Source of the DNA: Minisyncoccia bacterium
GTDB taxonomy: Bacteria > Patescibacteriota > Minisyncoccia > Phycocordibacterales > PALSA-1337
Length of the DNA stretch: 64,000 nucleotides
Assembly (NCBI GenBank): GCA_038211765.1
Contig: JBBQVG010000001.1
Location: 1,837-65,836 of the forward strand
Direction: 5' to 3'
Under the pieces are notes generated by a model. The model was not told where the DNA came from. It saw only the letters and a list, made by a program, of their open reading frames with translations, and made no database searches. The position numbers and the translations under genes are program-made. Within the stretch, counting starts at the first letter, position 1. Each line of letters starts with the position of its first letter. This document shows positions 5,167 through 49,296 of the stretch, in pieces.

Positions 5167-6303
5167 TTGGGTATTATGTATAAAAGAACACTATCAGAAA
5201 TTATACCGAAAGCTTTTAGTAAGGGCTTTATTGTCATTATTTATGGTGCTCGTAGAGTAGGGAAGACCGTACTTCTCCAACAGATACAGGCTGTATTGGG
5301 TAACCCCAGTATCTTGATGTTCAATGGTGATACCGCAGAAGCTGTAGAAGCCTTCAATACAAACTCGGAGACGAGACTTTCATCATTGGTGAAAGATCAC
5401 GAGTATATATTTGTAGATGAAGCACAAAATATTCCAAACATTACACTTGCTCTGAAAATAATCATAGATAAATTTCCAGAAAAGAAGATAATAATCACAG
5501 GCTCATCATCGTTGGCGCTAGTTCGTGGCGCAACCGAACATCTGACAGGGAGAAATATCTCATTTACCTTGTTTCCATTAAGTACAACGGAAATGACTGC
5601 AGATGTGCCAGCCTTCAAGATCCCTGCGCTTCTGGATCAGCAACTGGTATTCGGTTCTTATCCTCACGTACAGTCTCTTTCTACCTCTGAAGAAAAAAAG
5701 AGATATTTGTCTGGGATCGTTGAAAATTACTTGTTTCAAGACGTACTTTTACTAGAGCGTCTGGATTATCCAGAAGGATTCAAAAAGATGGCCACTTTTT
5801 TGGCATTTCAGATTGGGAAAGAGGTTTCATTGAATGAGATAGCTAAAAATCTTAATATTAGTGTCAAAACAGTCTCAAGGTATTTGGATCTTCTTGAGAA
5901 GAGTTTCGTTATTTTGCCACTAGGAGCTTATTCAAGCAATCTAAGGAACGAAATTAGTAAGAATAAGAAATATTATTTTTATGACCTAGGTATCCGTAAT
6001 GCACTCGTAGGGCAGTTCCAACAACTCTCGGACCGTGTTGATGTGGGCGAGTTGTGGGAGAATTTTCTCATTATGGAGAGAATAAAAAGTAATACCTATT
6101 CTGGTAAGATTCTCAATCAGTTTTTCTGGAGGAACTACTCTGGCGGAGAAATAGACTTGATAGAAGTCAATGACGGTAAAATTTCCGCATTTGAATTTAA
6201 GTGGAATAAATCTGGTGCCAGAACCCCCAAAAGCTTCAAAGATAGTTATAATGTTGATGTGGTCACAATTAACAAGGATAATTATATAGATTGGGTCTCA
6301 TAG
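5167..6303 (+). CDS. AAA+ ATPase, DUF4143/COG1373-type (archaeal-ATPase-like)
   Basis: Walker A 'GARRVGKT', Walker B-like 'YIFVDEAQ'. Overall layout of the AAA_14 + DUF4143 family. Confidence 0.65.
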   Translation: MGIMYKRTLSEIIPKAFSKGFIVIIYGARRVGKTVLLQQIQAVLGNPSILMFNGDTAEAVEAFNTNSETRLSSLVKDHEYIFVDEAQNIPNITLALKIIIDKFPEKKIIITGSSSLALVRGATEHLTGRNISFTLFPLSTTEMTADVPAFKIPALLDQQLVFGSYPHVQSLSTSEEKKRYLSGIVENYLFQDVLLLERLDYPEGFKKMATFLAFQIGKEVSLNEIAKNLNISVKTVSRYLDLLEKSFVILPLGAYSSNLRNEISKNKKYYFYDLGIRNALVGQFQQLSDRVDVGELWENFLIMERIKSNTYSGKILNQFFWRNYSGGEIDLIEVNDGKISAFEFKWNKSGARTPKSFKDSYNVDVVTINKDNYIDWVS

Positions 6304-6346
6304 ACCAGTGTATAATCCCTACATAAACATCAAGAATGCGCGCTTA

Positions 6347-6375
6347 TTGACTCCCTGTACACCATCTGCTAAGAT
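6347..6375 (+). promoter_or_regulatory. candidate sigma70-type promoter for the S14-S8-L6-L18-S5-L15-secY operon
   Basis: TTGACT - 17 nt - TAAGAT, ~118 nt upstream of the rpsN start. The leader contains a potential stem (ggatgattgg ... ccaatccc). Confidence 0.4.
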
Positions 6376-6493
6376 CTCCCATACCTCAGCAAAACAATGT
6401 TTGTTTGAAGGGATGATTGGAAGCACGACCCGTCCGCCGATTTGGTAGGGGGTACAGCTAACCAATCCCATTTGTTTTGTAAGGAGAAGACCT

Positions 6494-6679
6494 ATGGCAA
6501 AAACATCAGTCATCGCACGATCTCAAAAGAAGCCGAAATTCCAGTCGCGCGTCGTTCGTCGTTGCTTCCGTTGTGGTCGCAAGCGTGCATATATGAGAGA
6601 TTTCGATCTCTGCCGTATCTGTTTCCGTGAGTTTGCCAACGAAGGTATGATTCCGGGCATCAAGAAGTCTTCTTGGTAA
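6494..6679 (+). CDS. rpsZ: 30S ribosomal protein S14 type Z (zinc-binding)
   Basis: 61 aa '[46 protein letters not shown]...' with a CxxC...CxxC zinc motif. Confidence 0.92.
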
Positions 6680-6696
6680 TTCCTAACTTCTCACTT

Positions 6697-7095
6697 ATGA
6701 CCACCGACCCTATTTCAGATCTCATTATCCGCATCAAGAATGGCAGTGATGCCCACAAGCCCTCCGTGGAGGTTGTTTATTCCAAGTTTGCTGAAAGCGT
6801 AGCTCATGCCCTGAAAAAGGCCGGCTACCTGACTTCTGTCGAAAAGAAGAGCGCAAGCAAGACATTTACATCTGGTCTTATTTTGGGGATTTCATACATA
6901 AATGGCGATCCTCGTATACATGGTGCAGAACGCATTTCCAAGCCTTCTCGTCGTTTGTATCAGAAGTCGAGTGATATCCGCATGTACCGCAGTGGTTTTG
7001 GTAACACATTTTTATCTACTCCCAAGGGTGTCCTCGTAGATGTAGATGCCAAGAAAAACAAGGTCGGCGGGGAAGTGTTGTTCAAGATTTGGTAG
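6697..7095 (+). CDS. rpsH: 30S ribosomal protein S8
   Basis: 'MTTDPISDLIIRIKNGSDAHK...' is the canonical S8 N-terminus. Start moved to ATG 6697 (the ORF-track start 6673 is TTG upstream). Confidence 0.9.
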   Translation: MTTDPISDLIIRIKNGSDAHKPSVEVVYSKFAESVAHALKKAGYLTSVEKKSASKTFTSGLILGISYINGDPRIHGAERISKPSRRLYQKSSDIRMYRSGFGNTFLSTPKGVLVDVDAKKNKVGGEVLFKIW

Positions 7096-7215
7096 TTCGA
7101 AGCTAAAAATTCAAAATGAAAAATTTAAATTTCAAGTTAAGTAGTCGAATCCAAAACAGAAATATTTTTATCTGCAATTTTGCAGTTTGCACTTTTAACT
7201 TCTCACTTAATTAAC

Positions 7216-7749
7216 ATGTCCCGCATCGCAAAAAAACCCATTGTTCTCCCCGCAAAGACAGAAGCGACTTTTGTCGATGGTGTCATAACTGTCAAAGGTC
7301 CTTTGGGTGAACTCAAGAAATATTTCCGAGACGACATCGCAGTAGTTATCGAAAATGGTTCTATCACTCTCACACCCAACCGCACAACCCTGCAAGCAAA
7401 GGCTCTGTGGGGAACGTATGCTTCTCATTTGAAAAATATGATCGCAGGTGTCAACAAGGCATACGAAAAGAAGCTGATCGTCGAGGGTATTGGCTTCAAG
7501 GCCGACGTCAAAGGTACAGAGCTAGCTATGGCACTTGGATTTTCTCATCCAGTGAACATTCCTATTCCCGCAGACCTCAAAGTCACTACCGAAAAGAACG
7601 CCATCACTGTCGTTGGTATCGATTGTGAGAAGGTCGGTCAGTTCGCTGCTGTAGTTCGATCGATGAAGAAGCCTGAACCGTACCTCGGGAAGGGCATTCG
7701 TTATTCGGACGAAGTGATCCGCAGAAAGCAGGGCAAGAAAGCCGCGTAA
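7216..7749 (+). CDS. rplF: 50S ribosomal protein L6
   Basis: 'MSRIAKKPIVLPAKTEATFVDGVITVKGPLGEL...' Start at ATG 7216 (track start 7180 is upstream in-frame). Confidence 0.9.
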   Translation: MSRIAKKPIVLPAKTEATFVDGVITVKGPLGELKKYFRDDIAVVIENGSITLTPNRTTLQAKALWGTYASHLKNMIAGVNKAYEKKLIVEGIGFKADVKGTELAMALGFSHPVNIPIPADLKVTTEKNAITVVGIDCEKVGQFAAVVRSMKKPEPYLGKGIRYSDEVIRRKQGKKAA

Positions 7750-7765
7750 GCAGTAAGCCGCACCA

Positions 7766-7785
7766 CCCAGTAGGTGATCCTACTG
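7766..7785. repeat. copy of TCACCTACTGGG/CCCAGTAGGTGA repeat family (hairpin CAGTAGG-tgatc-CCTACTG) just after rplF
   Basis: 'cccagtaggtgatcctactg'. Related copies at 14084-14138, 52921-52952 and 63491-63613. Confidence 0.55.
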
Positions 7786-7824
7786 AATCACGAATGATGC
7801 CACACGAATGCTACAAATAATCAC

Positions 7825-8175
7825 ATGAACACATTACAGAAAAAACACGAAATATTCAGCCGACGCAAGGCTCGCGTCCGCGCCAAGATCCGTGGAACAG
7901 CAGAACGTCCTCGTCTCGCGGTGTTCAAGTCACACAAATATATATACGTTCAGATCATCAATGACGACAAGGGCAATACTCTGGTCTCAGCAGACTCTCG
8001 TGAAGCAAAGGGCAAGACTCCGGTAGAGCGTGCCAAAGAGATCGGCGTAGAGATTGCAAAGAAGGCAAAAGCAGCTAAGATCACAGCAGTGGTCTTCGAT
8101 CGAGGAGGATATCTATACACTGGTAAGATCAAGATGGTCGCCGATGCTGCACGCGAAGGGGGCTTGAAATTTTAA
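7825..8175 (+). CDS. rplR: 50S ribosomal protein L18
   Basis: '...[44 protein letters not shown]...' is the L18 signature. Confidence 0.9.
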
Positions 8176-8183
8176 ATAACATC

Positions 8184-8894
8184 ATGACTGCAAAAGAAAT
8201 ACAAAAGAATACAGAAGGAGAAGTCGCTGCAGAAACGGTTGCTCTGGATATACCCGTTGCCGCAGTTCCCGTTCCTGAAGTTGCTGCACCAGCCAACAAG
8301 ATCACTCCGGGACGTAAGGTTCGTGGAGACAATGGTCGTCGCGGTGCTCGTCCAGGAAGCACTGGTCCTGGTGGACCTGGCAGAGGTGGACGCGGTGGTA
8401 GGAGTGATACACGTGAGCGCGTAAAACCAGAGTTCGATAGCAAGATTATCGATATTCGACGTGTGACTCGTGTGACCTCTGGCGGTCGCCGTATGAACTT
8501 TAGTGTGGCTGTGGTCGCCGGTGATCGCAAGGGCCGTGTCGGAGTGGGCATGGGCAAGAGTATCGATACTGCCTCAGCCGTCGAAAAAGCTACACGTGAA
8601 GCAAAGAAACATCTCATCCGCGTGCCGCTCTCGGCTCAGATGACTATTCCTCATGCTGTTGAAGCAAAGTATGGCAGTGCACGCATCATGGTCTTCCCAG
8701 CACGCGGTCGCGGGGTAGTGGCTGGTAGCTCGGCACGCGCTGTTATCGAGCTTGCAGGCATCAAAGACGTCTGTGCCAAATTCCTCTCAGGCAGTAAGAA
8801 CCGCGTCAACAACGCCCGCGCCACTGTCGAAGCTCTGAAGAAACTGATGACAGTATCCCGAGAAGTCTTGCAGGGTAAAGAAATAAAGAAATAA
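8184..8894 (+). CDS. rpsE: 30S ribosomal protein S5 with ~75-aa Gly/Arg/Pro-rich N-terminal extension
   Basis: Core 'IIDIRRVTRVTSGGRRMNFSVAVVAGDRKGRVGVGMGKSIDTASAVEKA' matches S5. It is preceded by 'PGRKVRGDNGRRGARPGSTGPGGPGRGGRGGRSD'. Confidence 0.9.
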   Translation: MTAKEIQKNTEGEVAAETVALDIPVAAVPVPEVAAPANKITPGRKVRGDNGRRGARPGSTGPGGPGRGGRGGRSDTRERVKPEFDSKIIDIRRVTRVTSGGRRMNFSVAVVAGDRKGRVGVGMGKSIDTASAVEKATREAKKHLIRVPLSAQMTIPHAVEAKYGSARIMVFPARGRGVVAGSSARAVIELAGIKDVCAKFLSGSKNRVNNARATVEALKKLMTVSREVLQGKEIKK

Positions 8895-8895
8895 C

Positions 8896-9378
8896 ATGCA
8901 AACTCACCAACTCAAAAGGAAGAATCCCAACATGAAGCGTGTTACTGTCGCTCGCGGTGGTAAGCGTGGCAAGACGGCTGGTCGTGGAGGCAAGGGTCAG
9001 TCAGCACGTGCAGGTAACAAGCGTCGTCCAGAATGGCGTGACATCATCAAGAAAATCCCCAAACTTCGCGGTCGCGGTGTAAATCAGAACAAGCCTGTTT
9101 CGGACTCTCTCACAGTAGTCAACATCTCTGCACTCGAAGCAATATTCTCTGCAGGCGACGTCGTCTCTCCAGCTACTTTGATGCAACATGGTATCATTAG
9201 CTCACAGTCTGGTCGCACTCCTTCGGTCAAGATCCTTGGCGATGGGGAAGTTACCAAGGCCTTCAAGATCTCGGGCTGTACTATATCAGCAGCAGCCAAA
9301 GAAAAGATCGAAAAGGCTGGCGGATCTGTCACCCCGATTACCGGATTGGCTGACGGATCGAAGAAAAGAGGGGCCTAG
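8896..9378 (+). CDS. rplO: 50S ribosomal protein L15 (follows S5 directly; no L30 gene)
   Basis: 'KRVTVARGGKRGKTAGRGGKGQSARAGNKRRPEWRD...' is the Gly/Arg-rich L15 N-terminus. Confidence 0.85.
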   Translation: MQTHQLKRKNPNMKRVTVARGGKRGKTAGRGGKGQSARAGNKRRPEWRDIIKKIPKLRGRGVNQNKPVSDSLTVVNISALEAIFSAGDVVSPATLMQHGIISSQSGRTPSVKILGDGEVTKAFKISGCTISAAAKEKIEKAGGSVTPITGLADGSKKRGA

Positions 9379-19976: not shown

Positions 19977-20341
19977 GGGGATGATCGGCTTCGACAAGCG
20001 ATCGTTTTCGTCCGTGCGATGCGAGCACCATTAACTCGTAAATCTGATGGAAATCACAAATGCTAAATCAACCGTTTCTCCGTATTTCGGAGCCAAGGAC
20101 TTTGCATTCGCACTAGTTTAACTAGAGCGCGTTCACCCAAGGGGATCCATACCTTGATGTGGATGTCATTACCCGGATGTAGGTATTACGAGACTTCTCA
20201 GCTCGTAGCCGAAACACCGAGATCGCGATTATGTGTTTTGCAATATTTTTCAGCATAATCGTTAAACTACAAATTTTGCTACCATCGTAGAATCGTTCGA
20301 CAAACATCGTTTGAACCTGGGTTCGATTCCCAGCATCTCCA
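19977..20341 (+). ncRNA. ssrA: tmRNA (ssrA), one-piece, immediately downstream of smpB
   Basis: 5' 'GGGGATGATCGGCTTCGACAAGCG' pairs with 3' 'CATCTCC'+A. T-arm 'CTGGG TTCGATT CCCAG' abuts the acceptor. Candidate tag frame from resume GCT at 20062 (AKSTVSPYFGAKDFAFALV*) ends at TAA 20119-20121. CCA not encoded. Confidence 0.65.
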
Positions 20342-20428
20342 CAAATTTGACAGATATGAGTAAACATGCTATCATTTTAGGTAGCAGTTTTACAGCAATC
20401 CAACAACCAAAACGTCCGAAACAGCACA

Positions 20429-23292: not shown

Positions 23293-23417
23293 TTTTAGAT
23301 GTTCACGTGATCCTCTCTTGTCAGAATAAAAACGTGGCAAAAGAATCGTGCCCAAACTTGATTTCACTTTTATAAAAACAAGCCAAGATCAGTAGTTACG
23401 ACATATAGGGAACGGGA

Positions 23418-24167
23418 TTGATGATGACCACTAAGAGTGGTAGTTTATTCCTTGGACCTAAGTGGAGTGTGTGCTCTATGCTTGGTTCAAAGCCTGGTTC
23501 AAAAACGCAAACTAGTTTAACGCATGAAAAGAAAGTTGCTCATAGTCACCGGAAGAAGAAACCGCGTTGCCATAATTATTCGCAATGTAACGCGCGTAAC
23601 ATTCAATCACTGCTCGCGGCGGTCGTACCAACAGCGGCACGCTCGAGACACTCGCTGGAGTCACGTCTCCAGGCTCAAGGCCTGGGCTCGTTGGCTCGAG
23701 GCACAGCAGCAATCGGCAGTCTGAAAAAACAAGGAGAAGTCCGTATGTGGCAAACTCTTTTGAAAATTTCTCAGACACCCACCTATATCGTGTTTTCGGT
23801 GACAAGTACGTTGGTGTGGATATTGGTTGTTGTTGCAAAGAGACATTCGCGCCGCTGTATCTGCGGATCGTGGCGAGTCGGACGTATCCATCAGATGATC
23901 CTTGTTGAGGATCGTCGCAATGATGGATTTCATTTCCACTGTTTCACCTTTACACCGTGTAGAAAGTGCACGGAGGTCGGCTGTGGTAGTCATGACAAGT
24001 ACTGCAATGTCATGGAACTGTGGTGGAGGAGCACGTTCCACCCAGGACAATTTGTCCTCCGTCCAGATCTCTTTCGCCGAGCAGGTATCGGCCTTCCAGG
24101 CTCTCCGTTCATCGCAACTTGTACCAAGATTGTTCACCGACCCTCAGTGACCGAGACAGCTTCATAG
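23418..24167 (+). CDS. questionable ORF in GC-rich patch (Cys/Arg/His-rich translation); may be non-coding
   Basis: ORFs are open on both strands. The plus-strand terminator at 24192-24219 supports plus transcription. Composition is atypical for protein. Confidence 0.2.
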   Translation: MMMTTKSGSLFLGPKWSVCSMLGSKPGSKTQTSLTHEKKVAHSHRKKKPRCHNYSQCNARNIQSLLAAVVPTAARSRHSLESRLQAQGLGSLARGTAAIGSLKKQGEVRMWQTLLKISQTPTYIVFSVTSTLVWILVVVAKRHSRRCICGSWRVGRIHQMILVEDRRNDGFHFHCFTFTPCRKCTEVGCGSHDKYCNVMELWWRSTFHPGQFVLRPDLFRRAGIGLPGSPFIATCTKIVHRPSVTETAS

Positions 24168-24191
24168 GGTAAAGATCATGATGCCACTTCA

Positions 24192-24219
24192 CGCCACCAC
24201 TTCAACTGTGGTGGCTTTT
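24192..24219 (+). terminator. rho-independent terminator
   Basis: 'gccaccacttcaactgtggtggc' + 'ttttc'. Confidence 0.55.
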
Positions 24220-24330
24220 CATTCCAAGTATTCGTCATTCTCCATACATTTTCTTTGCTTTATTCTGTTTTTCTGTATAATCAGTCTACGACCTATATCA
24301 TAGTAATTACATTTGAAATTAACCTCTTAC

Positions 24331-26280
24331 ATGTCTACATCCACCCAAAAACCTCAACAGAAAAAGAACCCAAAGATCCCTCGTGGGCTTTTGCCGCGTC
24401 AGATGAGCTTTGTGAATATCATAGCTATCGCCATACTGATCTTCCTTTTGATAACGGGTGTTTACTCCCAATTCTCATCGCAAGAACTTCCAGCCGCCCA
24501 AGCATCACTTTCCGAGATTGCAGCGGATGTCCAAAAGGGAGTAGTGACTACCATCAAGCTCGAGGATAACAACGTCATTGCCCAATATGCCGACATGTCC
24601 CTCAAGAAGGCTCAAAAGGAGCCCGACTCTTCCCTGACCGAAAGTCTCACCAATCTCGGTGTTACATCTGCTCAGTTGGCTAGCACTACCATCATTGTGC
24701 AACAGCCAAGTGGATTTTGGTTTTGGTTCGGACAGATTGCGCCATTCCTTGCACCTATCCTCTTTCTCGTTTTCTTCATTTGGATATTCTCTCGTCAGGT
24801 AAAAGGTGCCGGTATGCAGGCGCTTTCGTTTGGTCAGTCCAAAGCGCGCATCACCATGCCAGATGATCAGAAACAAAAAGTAACATTCAAAGACGTTGCT
24901 GGTGCTAAGGAAGCAAAGCAGGAACTTCTGGAGATCGTCGACTTTCTCAAAAATCCAAAAAAGTTTATCGAGATCGGAGCGGAGATTCCAAAAGGCGTTC
25001 TTCTGATGGGTGCACCAGGAACGGGAAAAACCCTCCTTGCTCGTGCGGTTGCAGGAGAAGCCAATGTAGCCTTTTTTGCTATTTCTGGATCCGAATTTGT
25101 AGAGATGTTCGTCGGTGTGGGTGCTAGTCGCGTGCGTGATCTCTTCAAGATGGCCAAGGGCACTGCGCCAGCCATAGTCTTCGTAGATGAGATCGACGCC
25201 GTCGGCCGTGCACGTGGTTCGGGTATGGGTGGAGGCAATGACGAAAGGGAACAGACTCTAAACCAAATCTTGGTAGAGATGGATGGCTTTGAACCAAATG
25301 AAAAGGTTATTGTTATGGCGGCCACCAACCGTCCTGATGTTCTTGACCCGGCACTTTTGCGCCCTGGTCGTTTTGACCGACGTGTAGTTATCGATCTTCC
25401 AGACCGCGAAGATCGTGAAGCTATACTCGGTATCCACGCCGCAAAGAAACAACTGGCCGAAGATGCAAACCTCAAGGTTGTAGCCGAACGTACTCCCGGC
25501 TTCTCTGGTGCAGACCTCGCATCCATCATGAACGAAGCAGCCATCCTTGCTGCACGTGAAGATCGTACCAAGATCGCCCAGTTTGACCTTATCCGTTCGA
25601 TAGAAAAAGTGATGCTTGGTCCAGAACGTCGTAGCCACATACTCTCCACAAAAGAAAAAGAGATCACGGCATATCATGAGGCTGGTCATGCTATCGTCTC
25701 CTCAGTTTTGCCAAATGCCGATCCTGTCCACAAGATCTCTATCATTTCTCGTGGCCGCGCCGCGGGATACACACTGAAGTTGCCACTCGAAGATCGCAAG
25801 CTCCAGTCTCGCAAAGATTTTCTCGATGATATCGCCGTTTCTCTGGGAGGATATGCCGCTGAGCGCATGATCTACGGTGACTTCACCACAGGAGCTTCCA
25901 ATGATCTCCAGGTCTCGACGGCTCTAGCGCGTAGTATGGTCACTCAATACGGCATGTCAGAGAAGATCGGTCCAGTAGCCTTCGAATCCTCAGGTGGCCG
26001 CACGCTCTTTGGTATGGGTGTAGAAGGCAAAGACTATTCCGAAAAAGTGGCCGCCGAGATCGACGGAGAAGTAACCCGGATCATGACCGAGGCTCGTGGC
26101 CACGCCGAGAAGGTGCTAACCGAGCACCGAAAAACATTTGAGATCATCACAAAAAGACTGATCGAAAAGGAAACCATCGAACGCGAAGAATACGAAAGTA
26201 TCTTGGTTGCCCAAGGGATCAAACTCAAAAAGAAAGAAGAGGAATTTGTCTCTCCGCGTGCAGACACACTGAGTGCATAG
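24331..26280 (+). CDS. ftsH: ATP-dependent zinc metalloprotease FtsH
   Basis: '[23 protein letters not shown]', SRH region, zinc site 'HEAGHAIVS'. ATG 24331 preferred over the TTG track start. Confidence 0.95.
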
Positions 26281-26382: not shown

Positions 26383-27108
26383 ATGAGCAATCAAATACTG
26401 AAGTATCACCGTGTGCTTTTGAAGTTGAGTGGGGAAATGCTCGAAGATGAGCAATTAAATTTTTCTCCCCACGTGGCGAAAGTGTTGGCAAACGAAGTCA
26501 AGCAGATTTATGTAATGGGGGCACACATCGCCATTGTCGTTGGTGGGGGCAACATCTTTCGAGGTGTATCTGGGAGTAAGCAGGGTCTCGACCCCGTTAC
26601 TGCCGATTACATGGGTATGCATGGGACCATTATCAACGCACTTGGTCTCATGGACATTTTCGAAAAGTCAGGGATGCCGACGAGAGTTCAGAGCGCATTC
26701 GAAAGTGATCGTGTCTGTGAGCCTGTCATTCGCCGCAGGGCGCTTCGTCATCTGGAAAAAGATCGCGTGGTCATCTATGCAGCCGGTACTGGTAATCCAG
26801 GTTTCACAACGGATACTGCTGCCGCGCTTCGGGCATTTGAGATCGGTGCCGAGGTTCTTCTCAAGGGCACCAAGGTTGACGGGGTTTACGACTGCGATCC
26901 GGTCCATAATCCGGCAGCAAAACGCTTCGAAAGCATAAGTTGTAACGAGGTGATCGAGCGCAAACTCCAGGTGATGGACTCTACGGCGTTCACATTCTGT
27001 CGCGACAAGAAGATACCCATCATCGTTTTCAATCTCTTTACGCCGGGCAATCTCAAGGCGATCTTGGAGGGGAAATCAGTGGGTACTCTGGTTACTGTCG
27101 AACCTTGA
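26383..27108 (+). CDS. pyrH: UMP kinase
   Basis: 'YHRVLLKLSGEML', 'IAIVVGGGNIFRG', 'AAGTGNPGFTTDTAAALRA'. Confidence 0.9.
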   Translation: MSNQILKYHRVLLKLSGEMLEDEQLNFSPHVAKVLANEVKQIYVMGAHIAIVVGGGNIFRGVSGSKQGLDPVTADYMGMHGTIINALGLMDIFEKSGMPTRVQSAFESDRVCEPVIRRRALRHLEKDRVVIYAAGTGNPGFTTDTAAALRAFEIGAEVLLKGTKVDGVYDCDPVHNPAAKRFESISCNEVIERKLQVMDSTAFTFCRDKKIPIIVFNLFTPGNLKAILEGKSVGTLVTVEP

Positions 27109-27192
27109 GTCGTTGTACGAAGCTATCGATCGGGCTCCGCAAGTGCGGGGCCTTTTTATTTCACTCACTTTATCCTATGATGAGTGCACCAA

Positions 27193-27266
27193 CCGCCCTT
27201 AGCTCAGTTGGTTAGAGCACAGAGCTTATACCTCTGGGGTCCTTGGTTCGAATCCAAGAGGGCGGA
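27193..27266 (+). tRNA. tRNA-Ile with anticodon UAU (AUA decoder)
   Basis: Manual cloverleaf: acceptor CCGCCCT/AGGGCGG, D-arm GCTC-AGTTGGTTA-GAGC, anticodon stem CAGAG/CTCTG, loop CTTATAC, T-arm CTTGG-TTCGAAT-CCAAG, discriminator A. No CCA encoded. Confidence 0.7.
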
Positions 27267-27321
27267 CATTGACGAGGAGAGCGGTGATAATGTAGCCCCA
27301 CATGCTCACAGTATATGCCCA

Positions 27322-29625
27322 TTACTCAAAATGCGCCTCTTTTTTGTGTATCTCCACTCGGCGTTTTAGTACGGGGTACTTCGACAGTTTCTCATCCTCT
27401 TCGATCAGTCTGGCCGCCTCGGTTCGTGCCGCCTCCACCATCTTTAGATTCTTCAAAGCTTCCATGGCCACGTCGGAGACTCCCCACTGACGTGCGCCGG
27501 TCAACTCTCCGGCTCCTCGTGCGGCCAAGTCTAGCTCTGCCAGTTCGAAGCCGTTTTTGGCCGATTGCAATGCTTTGAGGCGGTCGATAGATTTTGCTGA
27601 AGAAGTTTCAGTAAATGCGTAGCAATAAGCTTGATGTGAACTACGCTGAACACGACCGCGTAGTTGATGGAGTTGCGCCAAGCCAAACCGTTCTGCCCCT
27701 TCTATGATTATGACTGTAGCATTCGGAACATTGACGCCCACTTCAACAACAGAAGTAGCGCAAAGGATATTGGTACGACCAGATTTGAAATCATTCATAA
27801 CTTGATCTTTTTCTGCGGGCTTCATTTTTCCATGGAGAACGCCGATCTCGTAGTGAGGAAATATTTTTTCCTTGAGCCTCTTTGCTTCTTCTTTGACAGA
27901 CTTTGCGATGAGTGCCGCTTCTTTGTCTGGATCAGGTTCGTCGATGCGCGGACAGATCACGTAGAGTTGCCGACCTGCGGCCAGCTCTATATGAATCTTT
28001 TGGTACATGGCATCACGACTGCTTGGTGTGACGAGCTCGGTGATGATCGGCTTTCTACCAGCGGGGGATTCGTCGAGGACGGTGAGGTCGAGGTCACCAT
28101 AGAGAGTTAGTGCAAGTGTGCGAGGTATGGGAGTCGCCGTCATGGAAAGCAAATGCGGTGCAGGCGGTCGAGGAGCCGTCTTTCCTGGAGATGACGCCTG
28201 CTGATTTTTCTTTACCAACATACCGCGTTGGTTCATCCCAAAACGATGTTGTTCGTCGATGATGACATATGCCAGTCGTTTGAACTGCACGGACTTTTGA
28301 ATAAGCGCGTGAGTGCCGATGACTACGGCGATCTCTCCGTTTTCGACCCATTTCAAAAGTTGTGATTTGGAAATATCCGTCCAGCCTTTGGGATTTATTT
28401 TTGAAGGAAACTTTCGGCAACCCGAGGACGTGATAAGTGCGATCTGGATGCCGAGGTATGCAAAATATTGGATGAAAGACTCGAAATGTTGGATGGCCAG
28501 GATCTCCGTCGGGCACATATAGGCGATCTGCAGTTTTTCGAATACCGCCCGAACAGGTTTTGCTGTTTTCGGATCAATGGGAGGCTTGGCAGTCAGTACG
28601 GCGTAGGTAGTGGCTGCAGCGACTGCAGTCTTGCCTGATCCGACATCGCCTTCGAGAAGGCGCGACATGGCCTGACCTTTTTTCATATCGGAAACGATAG
28701 TGTCGATGGCGCGGTTCTGCGCATTGGTAGCCTGAAATGGAAAACGCTTCACAAACTCTTTTAGATGAATGTCGTCAGTCTCTAAGGTAAAAGTGGGGAA
28801 GGTCTGATATTCTCTGCGAGCCTGCTGTTTTCCTAGTTGGATAGTAAAGACTTCTTCAAATGAAAATCGCTTGCGTGCAGATAGGGCGTCTTCGCGCTTG
28901 AGTGGCGTATGGATCCAGATGAGAGATGTTTTTATTCCTGGTAAATTGTATTTGGCCAGGATATCTTCGGGGATAGGCTCAGCAACCGTATCGAGTAGGC
29001 CACTTTTGAAAATCTTTTGAATGGTGTGATACATCCACAGCGTTGTGATGCCACGCGACTCCGGATACACCGGGTAGAGAGTATGCGCTTCGCCTTCATT
29101 TCCAAAAAGAGAATCTCCTACTCCTGTGGGGAGTTGATCCACTGCTTCGATCTTTGGGTTAGAAAAATAGAGATCAGAAGGGCGGGGGATTTCTTCGGTG
29201 ACTTGCAAAATCTCGGTGGTGATAATAGTGGGTACGGTTGTCGGTAGAACCTTTTTTCGTCTCTGACTTATCTTACCTTCGATGCGCACCAGCATGCCAT
29301 CGGTAAACATTTTTGCTACATAAGGCTGGTTGAACCAGACACAGTGTATCCGGCCAGTCTCGTCCTCTACATAGCCGTCGGCCATAGCGATACGGCTCTT
29401 GAAACCCTTGCTCGTTTTCAGTCCAGAGATTTTGCCAAATATAACCACAATGTCACCCTGTTTCAATGAGTCAATATTTCGTGCTTCTGCGGTGTCGCCA
29501 TAGCGCACTGGGAAGTGGTAGAGCAGATCTTCGACAGTAGTGACCCCAAGCTTTTTCAAGGCCAGCTTTTGGATGGGAGTAATGCGGGCAAATTCGGGAA
29601 TGGGTGTAGAGAGACTGACTGGCAT
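27322..29625 (-). CDS. recG: ATP-dependent DNA helicase RecG
   Basis: N-terminal wedge/OB region, helicase motifs 'GDVGSGKT' and 'DEQHRFG', 767 aa. Confidence 0.9.
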   Translation of the reverse strand: MPVSLSTPIPEFARITPIQKLALKKLGVTTVEDLLYHFPVRYGDTAEARNIDSLKQGDIVVIFGKISGLKTSKGFKSRIAMADGYVEDETGRIHCVWFNQPYVAKMFTDGMLVRIEGKISQRRKKVLPTTVPTIITTEILQVTEEIPRPSDLYFSNPKIEAVDQLPTGVGDSLFGNEGEAHTLYPVYPESRGITTLWMYHTIQKIFKSGLLDTVAEPIPEDILAKYNLPGIKTSLIWIHTPLKREDALSARKRFSFEEVFTIQLGKQQARREYQTFPTFTLETDDIHLKEFVKRFPFQATNAQNRAIDTIVSDMKKGQAMSRLLEGDVGSGKTAVAAATTYAVLTAKPPIDPKTAKPVRAVFEKLQIAYMCPTEILAIQHFESFIQYFAYLGIQIALITSSGCRKFPSKINPKGWTDISKSQLLKWVENGEIAVVIGTHALIQKSVQFKRLAYVIIDEQHRFGMNQRGMLVKKNQQASSPGKTAPRPPAPHLLSMTATPIPRTLALTLYGDLDLTVLDESPAGRKPIITELVTPSSRDAMYQKIHIELAAGRQLYVICPRIDEPDPDKEAALIAKSVKEEAKRLKEKIFPHYEIGVLHGKMKPAEKDQVMNDFKSGRTNILCATSVVEVGVNVPNATVIIIEGAERFGLAQLHQLRGRVQRSSHQAYCYAFTETSSAKSIDRLKALQSAKNGFELAELDLAARGAGELTGARQWGVSDVAMEALKNLKMVEAARTEAARLIEEDEKLSKYPVLKRRVEIHKKEAHFE

Positions 29626-47042: not shown

Positions 47043-47750
47043 TTAAATTATTTCGTCCTCAAACCAAGGTTTTACACTAGTACCTTTCTTTGTTGAGTAC
47101 ATATAAGAGATCGGTAGGGTCTTTGGAAAGATTTCATTGAGTTCACTACCATTAAAAGTCAGAAAGATACAGCCTTGATACTTTTCATCTATTTTCTGTC
47201 GCTCTAATTGATTTTGTAAATAATATAGCTTTGCAGCAACAGAGTAATCATTTGAAGAAGTGTAGTGTTTGTGTGCAGAGTTAAGGAGAATTTCAAATAG
47301 ACCTTTTTCAATGTCCACTGATTTAACAAGTGGCATGAGCCGGTCATTATCGTAAGTCACAAGTTCACTCAGATACGTCGTCTTAAATTCATGACTCTTA
47401 GCAAGATTACTTACAGAATCAAAATATATCTTTGTACTCTCTTTGGAATGACCATTCAGTTTCGCATGAGTATCAGTAAGTAAAATCAATAGCTCAGTTC
47501 CAGGTAAGTGTACAGTTCGAATGCGATCAAAAAACTCCTGCAGGAAATTGAATGTTTGCTTTTCAGGCTCACCAGCATTGTTTTTGTTTCCCTTACCCCA
47601 ATAGGTAACGAACTTTATAGGTTTATAATTATCAACTGCGGACTGGACGACTTCCTTCATTTTTTCGTAGTTAAGAGGCTGTTCTCTTTTGAACTTCCAT
47701 GTGTCAAAACTGCTTATTATTTCCTCTGTGAGAGTTTCATTATTTGACAT
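47043..47750 (-). CDS. hypothetical protein co-oriented and overlapping with AsnB-like gene
   Basis: 235 aa, 11-nt overlap with upstream asnB-like stop. AT-rich. No domain recognised. Confidence 0.45.
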   Translation of the reverse strand: MSNNETLTEEIISSFDTWKFKREQPLNYEKMKEVVQSAVDNYKPIKFVTYWGKGNKNNAGEPEKQTFNFLQEFFDRIRTVHLPGTELLILLTDTHAKLNGHSKESTKIYFDSVSNLAKSHEFKTTYLSELVTYDNDRLMPLVKSVDIEKGLFEILLNSAHKHYTSSNDYSVAAKLYYLQNQLERQKIDEKYQGCIFLTFNGSELNEIFPKTLPISYMYSTKKGTSVKPWFEDEII

Positions 47751-49296
47751 AGGTATTGGTCTTATTCACCAGTGTTCTCTCCTGATTGAATAGGGCTTTA
47801 TCATAGCCAAATTGTAGGAAATATTTGAAGTAATAGACTTCTTCCTTCGTCTCCAAATTCCAATCCCCGTATTTTGTTTTATACTCCTCAAGTTCAGTAA
47901 CAGAAACCTCTTTAGCCACAAAATCATAGAATAAGCCACCGATCTTTTGGTTTCCCTTATATCCAGCCCCTTCACTCAAGACCACTTTGTCTCGGTTGTA
48001 TATGTATTCAGGTAGCCGGTCCATCATTGCTTTTCGCAGGATGTATTTTGTGATGACTTTTTCACCAACTTTTTTCACCTTAAAATCACTTGAAATCCGC
48101 AGCACATACTCAACGAGATGCTTATCCAAGAAAGGTTCTCGCACCTCCGTAGTAAATGCCATCGATGTCCTATCAACTCTTTGAAGTTGAGTTCTATGTA
48201 AATCAGAAAGAAACTTAATAATTCTTTCTTCTATTTTTTGACTTGATTCAAGCTGAGTAAATTCTGGATATCCAGCAAATATTTCATCTGATCCTTCACC
48301 ACAGAGGATGATTTTAAACCCTTTTTCTGCAGCTGCCAGTGCAATGTAATGAGACAGCGTAACCTGACGAACCATATTTGGCTCGAAACTTTCACTAGTC
48401 CTAATCGCCCAGGGAATATCCTTTACCAACCCTGCTTCAGTCGGAGGAACTTTTACAACATACTTGATCTTATTTTCTTCGCAGTATTTAATTGCTATCT
48501 TTTTGTCGGAAGATTCATCATTACCTACAATAATTGCAGTTACGTCATTGTGGTATTTTGCAGCAGTAGCAAGGACCGCAGTACTATCAATACCACCGCT
48601 CATGTATACTGCAATCGGTAAGTCGGTCTGGACTCGGATTCTTATCGCGTCATCAAATAGTTTTCGGATCTCTTCAGTAGCTTCATTTTCTAGGATTTCA
48701 TAATTTATCTTGGTTGGGATCTTCCAATATTGCGTCAATTTCCCATCCTTCATGTAGTGAGCTGGAGGGAAAAGTTTTACTTCCTTAACCTCATCAAGTT
48801 GTGACAAGGATTTAATCTCTGACCCAAAATAATAAGTTTCCTCATTTTGAGCCCAATAAAGAGGTTTAACGCCCAATAAGTCACGAGCTGCAAAGAAACT
48901 CTTTTGTTCTTTATCAAATATAAAAAAGGCAAACATGCCTATTAACTTCTGAAGTAAATCTGGACCCCATGCCGCATATCCATTTACAAGCACCTCAGTG
49001 TCTGAATCAGTATTAAATTTGTACCCCTTTTTAATAAGCTCTTCCTGAAGATCTTTATAATTATAGATTTCCCCATTAAAGACAATGGAGTATCTGCCAT
49101 CATTTGAGCTGATTGGTTGTTTTGCGTGTTCCCGATCAACAATAGCAAGCCTATTCATTCCCAGAACACAGGTTTCAATCTCCGCACTTTCATCAAAGTA
49201 TTTCCTTTCACCGCGAGATGAAATAGCCGCCAACATCTTTGTTAGCTCCGCCCTATCCTGCTTGTTCTTTCCTATTATGGCTGCTATTCCACACAT
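47740..49296 (-). CDS. asnB: asparagine synthetase (glutamine-hydrolysing) family amidotransferase
   Basis: N-terminal 'MCGIAAI' (Ntn Cys2) and PP-loop 'SGGIDSTAV'. 518 aa. Confidence 0.85.
   Translation of the reverse strand: MCGIAAIIGKNKQDRAELTKMLAAISSRGERKYFDESAEIETCVLGMNRLAIVDREHAKQPISSNDGRYSIVFNGEIYNYKDLQEELIKKGYKFNTDSDTEVLVNGYAAWGPDLLQKLIGMFAFFIFDKEQKSFFAARDLLGVKPLYWAQNEETYYFGSEIKSLSQLDEVKEVKLFPPAHYMKDGKLTQYWKIPTKINYEILENEATEEIRKLFDDAIRIRVQTDLPIAVYMSGGIDSTAVLATAAKYHNDVTAIIVGNDESSDKKIAIKYCEENKIKYVVKVPPTEAGLVKDIPWAIRTSESFEPNMVRQVTLSHYIALAAAEKGFKIILCGEGSDEIFAGYPEFTQLESSQKIEERIIKFLSDLHRTQLQRVDRTSMAFTTEVREPFLDKHLVEYVLRISSDFKVKKVGEKVITKYILRKAMMDRLPEYIYNRDKVVLSEGAGYKGNQKIGGLFYDFVAKEVSVTELEEYKTKYGDWNLETKEEVYYFKYFLQFGYDKALFNQERTLVNKTNTYVK

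Follow-up and report, generated by a model that had tools for sequence, protein, structure and literature searches.

The stretch of DNA analyzed here, 64 kb long and referred to below as the window, comes from a Minisyncoccia bacterium and carries a gene for a tRNA-Ile with an encoded UAU anticodon. TilS, the enzyme that puts lysidine on C34 of tRNA-Ile2(CAU) in the canonical system for decoding AUA, is regarded as essential and nearly universal in bacteria, and surveys count about 9-19 species or genomes that have tRNA-Ile(UAU) instead. An original prediction, made from the window sequence, had recognized the gene and taken it as a sign of an alternative way of decoding AUA and possibly of tilS loss. 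Of this genome we analyzed the 64 kb of the window, and statements about the whole genome are extrapolations. The gene, its anticodon and the surrounding features are as follows.

27193..27266, + strand: tRNA-Ile(UAU), 74 nt to the discriminator A73, no encoded CCA (ARAGORN, Rfam, covariation)
27227..27229, + strand: anticodon TAT (U34 A35 U36), in the loop CTTATAC at 27225-27231 (C32, U33, A37, C38)
24313..26280, + strand: ftsH, open reading frame (ORF) from TTG 24313, first ATG 24331 (NCBIfam TIGR01241, 774 bits)
23293..24312, + strand: slot directly upstream of ftsH, small hypothetical ORF, no PP-loop gene (Pfam and NCBIfam negative, TilS hidden Markov model (HMM) negative)
26383..27108, + strand: pyrH (UMP kinase), between ftsH and the tRNA (TIGR02075, 286 bits)
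27132..27163, + strand: terminator-like hairpin and T-run after pyrH, about 30 nt 5' of the tRNA
27322..29625, - strand: recG, convergent with the tRNA (RecG NCBIfam models, 592-688 bits)

ARAGORN called tRNA-Ile(tat) at 27193-27267, and Rfam RF00005 matched 27193-27266 over the full model with 69.4 bits (gathering score 29, E=4.6e-13). This bears out the predicted tRNA-Ile with a UAU anticodon at these coordinates, and the anticodon loop C-U-U-A-U-A-C had likewise been read correctly. The full gene sequence is CCGCCCUUAGCUCAGUUGGUUAGAGCACAGAGCUUAUACCUCUGGGGUCCUUGGUUCGAAUCCAAGAGGGCGGA. It forms the canonical cloverleaf, with a 7-bp acceptor stem, a 4-bp D stem, 5-bp anticodon and T stems and a 7-nt anticodon loop; every stem position is Watson-Crick and 21/21 pairs are standard. 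Direct reading of the sequence located all of the canonical tertiary nucleotides (U8, A14, G18-G19, G15/C48, U33, A37, G53-U54-U55-C56, A58, C61 and the discriminator A73). The bases after A73 are CAT, so that CCA is not encoded, and the gene is continuous over its 74 nt, with no eukaryote-type intron 3' of the anticodon. Minimum free energy folding yielded the acceptor and T arms only (z=-3.2) and did not recover the D and anticodon arms; we therefore took the proof of the cloverleaf from covariation.

Homologs were collected by scanning GTDB, with one genome per species, for a pattern that fixed the D-arm, the loop CTTATA, the variable loop and the T-loop. This pattern was found in at least 120 GTDB loci, nearly all of them from metagenome-assembled genomes (MAGs) of Patescibacteria, the candidate phyla radiation (CPR). 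Among the matches listed, ARAGORN called tRNA-Ile(tat) in 119 of 120 loci, and at least seven GTDB species have a copy identical to the window tRNA. Including that of the window there are 51 distinct tRNA(UAU) sequences, in which 99.7% of 1071 stem cells hold standard pairs. All 16 varying base pairs have changed on both sides, in compensatory fashion; one T-stem pair is invariant, and the four D-stem pairs were fixed by the search pattern. None of 500 shuffled controls reached the observed covariation, and sliding the pairing partner by 1-3 columns reduced pairing to 28-51%. The full-length Rfam match together with covariation in 51 sequences confirmed the clean cloverleaf that had been predicted, and ARAGORN gave the window gene no identity or anticodon other than Ile(TAT). 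The tRNA(UAU) genes are a functional family under purifying selection, and not pseudogenes or sequencing errors. C32 and A37 are invariant across the homologs; at position 38, Paceibacteria-type homologs have C or U and more distant CPR homologs have A.

The listed loci carry the labels Nomura-, Taylor-, Kaiser-, Zambryski-, Wildermuth-, Dojka- and Shapirobacteria, 'Paceibacterota', 'Minisyncoccia' and, in many cases, 'Saccharibacteria'; we suspect that some of the Saccharibacteria labels are generic. Their best DNA identity to the window is about 74%, so that none of them is the window's own genome, and look-ups for proteins identical to its PyrH and RecG gave no record. The FtsH proteins most similar to that of the window came from Patescibacteria MAG loci (L041, 87% identical; L080, 83%; L033, 81%; L106, 79%) and from Candidatus Taylorbacteria MAG loci (L038, L085 and L119, 77-79%). 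Judged by sequence, the window organism appears to be a Paceibacteria/Parcubacteria-type CPR bacterium whose nearest fetched relatives by FtsH include Candidatus Taylorbacteria. The gene had also been predicted to be rare. This holds for catalogued bacteria (9-19 species; 17 genomes), but not for its own lineage, where it is the norm and was seen in at least 128 genomes or contigs.

Microgenomates-type loci and three MAGs labelled 'Gammaproteobacteria' have a tRNA-Ile(UAU) with G1-C72 or A1-U72 and with A38. These genes cluster with initiator and elongator tRNA-Met (L031 3391-6051, L092 3346-3734, L004 1-1223, L078 6462-7497, L086 860-1843), so that three AUR decoders are encoded together. A tyrosine-recombinase (integrase) gene lies between the tRNA(UAU) and the Met tRNAs in L031.

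AUA is a common codon in this DNA. The 1293 Ile codons in 60 non-overlapping ORFs of the window include 262 AUA codons (20%; 15 per 1000), and AUA occurs 8 times in ftsH, 3 times in pyrH and 11 times in recG. We examined its meaning in alignments of FtsH (79 sequences) and RecG (58 sequences) that covered the window and the related loci, tallying the residues of the other sequences in AUA columns with AUA-coded residues excluded. AUA codons (n=2213) aligned with I in 55%, V in 17%, L in 12% and M in 3% of cases, and the values were I 56, V 17 and L 13% for AUU (n=2433) and likewise I 56, V 17 and L 13% for AUC (n=1739). AUG codons (n=2098) aligned with M in 62%. By these alignments AUA is read as Ile in the lineage, and it is used about as often as AUU. 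A codon that means Ile and is so heavily used requires an efficient decoder, for which the tRNA(UAU) is the obvious candidate.

We searched for the canonical alternative with a TilS HMM built from three structurally characterized N-domains (E. coli 1NI5, Geobacillus 3A2K and Aquifex 1WY5). Run on six-frame ORFs, it gave no hit either in the window or across the 865 kb of tRNA(UAU) loci (best E=0.9). ARAGORN found no CAU tRNA in the 64 kb, and the sole PP-loop protein of the window (47740-49296, - strand) is an asparagine synthase. In 52 tRNA(UAU) loci the sequence extends 1.2 kb or more upstream of ftsH; the upstream neighbor is smpB in 42 of them and a PP-loop gene in none. Heavy use of AUA as Ile, the conserved tRNA structure and an ftsH slot without tilS together substantiate the predicted alternative decoding of AUA. 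The further suggestion of tilS loss stands in part: tilS and a CAU tRNA are absent from the window, and tilS is absent from the ftsH slot in 52 relatives, while absence from the whole genome is what we infer.

The slot upstream of ftsH in the window was considered as a possible tilS pseudogene remnant (23293-24312). This was rejected, as neither the HMM nor Pfam gave a signal and the slot partly encodes a small hypothetical protein weakly conserved in L080: the C-terminal part of the window ORF (orf249; about 23922-24089) has a weak match in that locus. By eye, this C-terminal part is also similar to a stop-to-stop frame that precedes ftsH in L106.

The ftsH neighborhood is where CPR bacteria with the lysidine system carry tilS. 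In the gene table of Southlakia epibionticum, a cultivated Saccharibacterium, TilS (SEML1_0730) adjoins FtsH (SEML1_0729) on its upstream side and MviN follows FtsH; one tRNA-Ile and three 'tRNA-Met' lie within about 5 kb, which is a canonical lysidine system. As a second sample, meant to avoid selection by the tRNA, we fetched 80 ftsH-centered metagenome loci with a CPR FtsH alignment; their FtsH proteins are 45-71% identical to that of the window. In 28 of the 80, the TilS HMM identified TilS immediately 5' of ftsH (E=1e-9 to 1e-62), and ARAGORN placed a tRNA-Ile(UAU) 5-2200 nt from ftsH in eight. Across all 80 loci, 28 had TilS only, eight tRNA(UAU) only, none both and 44 neither (one-sided Fisher p=0.026, ignoring kinship). 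When the sample was confined to loci that extend 2.5 kb or more upstream and 2 kb or more downstream (37 loci), the counts were 16, six, none and 15 (p=0.023, again ignoring kinship). Where FtsH was at least 64% identical to that of the window, five of six loci were of the tRNA(UAU) type, and the sixth, L125 (4.5 kb), had neither feature. Taken over the window and 205 loci, tRNA(UAU) occurred without TilS in 128, TilS without tRNA(UAU) in 31, and both in none of these 159.

The layout of the two types of locus also differs. L138, the source of our CPR TilS seed and itself found in the ftsH-centered metagenome scan, carries at 5376-9080 three CAU tRNAs, tilS (327 aa), ftsH (overlapping by 4 nt) and murJ, in the same order as Southlakia. 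Relatives of its TilS are labelled 'candidate division Kazan' and 'Patescibacteria group bacterium', and the contigs of three of them share the order DivIC (- strand), three tRNA(CAU), tilS, ftsH, murJ. Loci L202-L205 have this block. The three CAU tRNAs of TilS-type loci are an initiator, an elongator-Met type and one with C4-G69 and C5-G68. The last is probably Ile2, since these pairs are TilS determinants in E. coli tRNA-Ile2. Clusters of the tRNA(UAU) type have just two CAU tRNAs, by eye of initiator and elongator type, as against three in TilS-type loci. In L031 (Dojkabacteria), tRNA-Ile(UAU), tRNA-Met and tRNA-fMet are followed about 600 nt later by ftsH, with no tilS; this gap is too short to have room for it, and the layout looks like a converted, intermediate-looking state of the locus. 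Searching a protein library clustered at 50% with the CPR-TilS profile added Peregrini-/Gracilibacteria to the TilS-bearing CPR groups. The few short-form TilS representatives that carry names are from the Patescibacteria group, Peregrini-/Gracilibacteria, Omnitrophica and Planctomycetaceae; no Paceibacteria-type names were among the library hits, few of which are named. A profile based on PDB structures, run against a set of 5.8 billion proteins, returned only Enterobacteria and Aquificae, and no CPR, among its best 120.

These data make it very probable that the window tRNA is a dedicated AUA decoder that replaces tRNA-Ile2(CAU) and TilS in a Paceibacteria/Parcubacteria-type CPR bacterium. 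We strongly infer that tilS and tRNA-Ile2(CAU) have been lost from the window genome and its lineage and that the UAU tRNA took over; we put this no more firmly because the window is 64 kb of the genome and some bacteria carry both systems.

Several observations weigh against this interpretation. A tilS or tRNA-Ile2(CAU) gene could lie outside the window, and the window holds no gene for isoleucyl-tRNA synthetase (IleRS). The GTDB loci, at least 120 in number, were chosen for carrying the tRNA(UAU), so they do not by themselves establish that the two systems exclude each other, and the ftsH-centered sample gives only p of about 0.02-0.03 with kinship ignored. The global identity of UAU tRNAs is 0.61-0.72 to putative CPR Ile2(CAU), 0.62-0.72 to elongator-Met and 0.52-0.69 to fMet; similarity does not discriminate between these classes and does not show an Ile2(CAU) ancestry of the UAU gene, of which the cluster layouts are suggestive. 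Two identity elements of the E. coli IleRS are missing, as detailed below, and dual systems are known from Lactobacillus casei, Cyanothece and Ferrimonas (Taniguchi 2013, PMC3575796).

Those dual systems lend some weight to a redundant arrangement, in which tilS and tRNA-Ile2(CAU) are present elsewhere in the genome and the UAU tRNA supplements AUA decoding; the 64 kb covered here and the retention of TilS in some CPR lineages would also allow for it. We consider it unlikely. Every TilS-bearing CPR locus that we saw (L138, L202-L205 and Southlakia) has tilS directly 5' of ftsH, yet in the window and in the 52 tRNA(UAU)-type loci no PP-loop gene occupies this slot, and none of the 159 loci with either feature has both. 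It also counts against redundancy that no named TilS hit came from Nomura-, Taylor- or Kaiserbacteria or from Paceibacterota despite the many MAGs of these groups, but this is a weak point because few of the hits carry names.

Alternatively, the tRNA might carry an amino acid other than Ile (Met, for instance, as AUA specifies in many mitochondria), which would amount to codon reassignment. For a bacterial tRNA-Ile the window gene has two oddities, a first pair C1-G72 and C38 in place of A38. The identity set of the E. coli-type IleRS, attributed to Nureki in 1994, is said to be A73, C4-G69, U12-A23, A35, U36, A37, C29-G41 and A38; the last two are missing in the window tRNA, which has G29-C41 and C38. 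Compared by BLAST with the tRNAs of E. coli, the gene matched a tRNA-Arg best (79%), but only the generic D/T-arm core is shared, so we discarded this match as having no bearing on identity or ancestry. C35, an arginine identity element, is absent from the window tRNA. The remaining elements, A73, C4-G69, U12-A23, A35, U36 and A37, all match Ile, and AUA aligns as do AUU and AUC, with 3% Met, in 137 protein sequences. This makes a non-Ile identity very improbable. The window tRNA also has C4-G69 together with C5-G68, TilS determinants in E. coli tRNA-Ile2; in a gene with a UAU rather than the CAU anticodon of the lysidine substrate, these pairs could be a vestige of such a substrate or mere IleRS identity.

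It is scarcely credible that the gene is a pseudogene, that a sequencing or assembly error turned the C of a CAU anticodon into T, or that a phage or mobile element recently brought in a tRNA without a core function. Rare-codon tRNA genes are common in phages and an integrase adjoins the tRNA(UAU) in L031, but the same anticodon recurs in 128 independent assemblies with compensatory stem changes, at a position conserved between the core genes ftsH and recG and flanked in the window by pyrH and recG.

The gene is tightly linked to ftsH. Among the 119 related loci listed, ftsH shared an 8-kb block with the tRNA(UAU) in 94 and recG was nearby in 66, and in L007, whose FtsH is 55% identical to that of the window, the tRNA(UAU) still follows ftsH by 73 nt. 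No pyrH match was found near the tRNA(UAU) in any of these 119 loci, so the pyrH gene between ftsH and the tRNA in the window genome represents a lineage-specific rearrangement. A consensus scan detected no sigma-70-like promoter between the hairpin and the tRNA. No phage- or mobile-element-like genes lie near the window tRNA.

The further RNA genes of the window are a tmRNA (19977-20344), a tRNA-Ser(GCU) and a tRNA-Ser with the anticodon ACU. Its other content includes the S5-SecY-Adk-Map end of the ribosomal protein cluster, NDK, a beta-CASP RNase, a DUF6159 membrane protein, an NYN-domain protein, Trp/Tyr-tRNA synthetase, asparagine synthase, a type IV pilus operon, LigA and many ORFs without a family match, and looks typical of CPR/Patescibacteria genomes. 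The tmRNA (+ strand) encodes the tag peptide AKSTVSPYFGAKDFAFALV, ending in ...ALV, as against the commoner ...LAA. In relatives smpB lies upstream of ftsH and divergent from it; it was not identified between the tmRNA and ftsH in the window, where there are a 165-aa ORF, the DUF6159 protein and the small hypothetical ORF. Ribosomal protein S5 (8184-8894, + strand; 236 aa) has an N-terminal extension of about 80 residues by its predicted ORF start, with the Pfam domain beginning at residue 84.

A second unusual tRNA lies at 32166-32253 (+ strand) of the window. This tRNA-Ser(ACU) has A34 in the loop U-U-A-C-U-A-A and scored 56.4 bits with Rfam. It is conserved in five relatives (L012 4623-4710, L045 7018-7105, L054 225-311, L069 7298-7384, L074 128-217), with an invariant anticodon stem-loop and acceptor and T stems that vary with compensation, and is usually 90-230 nt from a divergent tRNA-Ser(GCU). 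A34 tRNAs apart from Arg(ACG) are extremely rare in bacteria, and tRNADB-CE has just three bacterial Ser cases. In the window AGU is twice as frequent as AGC, and both align with Ser. Conversion of A34 to inosine in this tRNA would risk reading AGA. The tRNA-Ser(ACU) is arguably a stranger gene than the tRNA-Ile(UAU). In a Zambryskibacteria MAG that also has a tRNA-Ile(UAU), ARAGORN called a tRNA-Arg(GCG) (L090 3480-3552). The usual bacterial counterpart is ACG, read as ICG after deamination, and the GCG gene may be a further sign of an atypical wobble strategy.

Returning to the UAU tRNA as a replacement for tRNA-Ile2(CAU) and TilS, we envisage that an ancestral '3 x tRNA(CAU) - tilS - ftsH - murJ' arrangement was converted, in that tilS would have been lost and the Ile2(CAU) gene replaced. 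By analogy with known systems, the encoded UAU anticodon would be charged with Ile and would read AUA through a U34-A pair. Enzymes adapted to UAU have Arg at the position of E. coli W905 or are of the IleRS2 type, and here an IleRS2-type (archaeal/eukaryote-like) synthetase may do the charging. In Minisyncoccus archaeiphilus, the sole cultivated member of the window's class, the IleRS is annotated with DUF5915, which we take as the mark of a type-2 (archaeal/eukaryote-type) C-terminus. U34 would be unmodified or lightly modified and would bind AUA far better than AUG, and A37 would carry N6-threonylcarbamoyladenosine (t6A). Misreading of AUG may be kept low by a weak U-G interaction in the invariant C32/pyrimidine-38 loop context, with competition from tRNA-Met and possibly features of the ribosome as further limits.

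Extended beyond the window, this leads to a broader proposal that we hold tentatively, as quite possible but open to serious doubt. Large parts of the CPR would have dispensed with TilS, including at least Paceibacteria/Parcubacteria, several Microgenomates-type groups and other lineages, converting the ancestral locus to an ftsH-linked tRNA-Ile(UAU), whereas Saccharimonadia, Kazan and Gracilibacteria/Peregrinibacteria would have kept lysidine. Taken with the conserved A34 tRNA-Ser(ACU), which lies 5 kb from the tRNA(UAU), this would mean that codons ending in A or U are given dedicated Watson-Crick tRNAs, that lysidine is not used and that wobble modification in general is perhaps relied on less; the invariant C32/pyrimidine-38 loop would then be the safeguard against AUG misreading. 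The state of the ftsH locus, with either tilS and three CAU tRNAs or ftsH-tRNA(UAU), often with smpB upstream and recG downstream, may be a marker that splits CPR classes.

The window gene is genuine, and its annotation as an AUA decoder is warranted. If the trait holds for whole CPR classes, AUA decoding without tilS is a major lineage trait rather than a curiosity of a few reduced genomes, and whether or not ftsH has tilS beside it would be a simple synapomorphy-like character splitting these classes. The TilS N-terminal domain model TIGR02432 is one of the 120 bacterial marker genes of GTDB; TilS would then be systematically missing as a marker in completeness estimates and phylogenomics of such groups. 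The hundreds of diverged UAU tRNAs with a C32/Y38 context would form a natural series in which to study how U34 avoids AUG. The trait would also bear on the proposal that UAU decoding preceded lysidine (Taniguchi 2013, PMC3575796).

Previous accounts of tRNA-Ile(UAU) list nine species in three clades without tilS (Taniguchi 2013, PMC3575796), TAT-anticodon genes in 19 bacterial species (tRNADB-CE), and 17 bacterial genomes from Bifidobacterium, Mycoplasma and Neorickettsia with a 'tRNA-Ile3(UAU)' replacing Ile2 (the tRNAscan-SE 2.0 paper, PMC8450103). CPR bacteria are not mentioned in these three accounts, and we found no full-text literature linking lysidine or TIGR02432 to Patescibacteria or the candidate phyla radiation. 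The mechanism is already known, but its radiation-wide scale and the ftsH-linked either/or pattern with tilS appear to be undescribed.

In Mycoplasma mobile, U34 is unmodified, the IleRS is permissive through Arg865, and AUA but not AUG is read on its own ribosome (PMC3575796). The window tRNA resembles M. mobile tRNA-Ile2(UAU) in its encoded UAU, which would likewise read AUA as Ile, its A37 and its canonical cloverleaf; M. mobile has a reduced genome without tilS. They differ in that the M. mobile enzyme is a bacterial-type IleRS1 (Arg865), whereas the enzymes of CPR relatives appear to be of the IleRS2 type (Minisyncoccus), that the loss in M. mobile is isolated and at species level rather than radiation-wide, and that the CPR tRNA has C1-G72 and C38. 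B. subtilis delta-tilS grows nearly normally with a tRNA whose U34 is unmodified and which binds codons in the order AUA>>>AUU>AUG (Fabret 2011; Kohrer 2014, PMC3919564); the latter study emphasizes that the reading by U34 is tuned by positions 32 and 38 and by the ribosome. This suppressor, tRNA-Ile1(G34U), shows that TilS can be replaced, with low AUG misreading, by a UAU tRNA that lacks a modification at U34. It is a laboratory derivative of tRNA-Ile1(GAU), whereas the CPR gene is a natural, ancient and separately evolving isoacceptor.

The UAU anticodon is also shared with the eukaryotic cytoplasmic and archaeal (Nanoarchaeum, Korarchaeum) tRNA-Ile(UAU), which are charged by IleRS2-type enzymes. 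In eukaryotic tRNA-Ile(UAU) genes an intron directs pseudouridine formation at positions 34 and 36; the CPR gene differs in having no intron. With the canonical TilS/tRNA-Ile2(CAU) system of Southlakia epibionticum, Kazan and Peregrini-/Gracilibacteria, the tRNA(UAU) shares the specific decoding of AUA and the ftsH neighborhood, but there lysidine is put on C34 by the enzyme, whereas here UAU is encoded and the locus has no tilS. The closest functional parallel is probably in Bifidobacterium and Neorickettsia, whose lack of tilS has been linked to a eukaryote-type IleRS (Taniguchi 2013, PMC3575796). These belong to other phyla and are genus-level cases rather than a class-level or wider radiation, with no ftsH-linked arrangement reported. 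Their 'tRNA-Ile3(UAU)' has UAU in place of Ile2(CAU) and works with a eukaryote/archaeal-type IleRS, as by analogy the CPR tRNA would.

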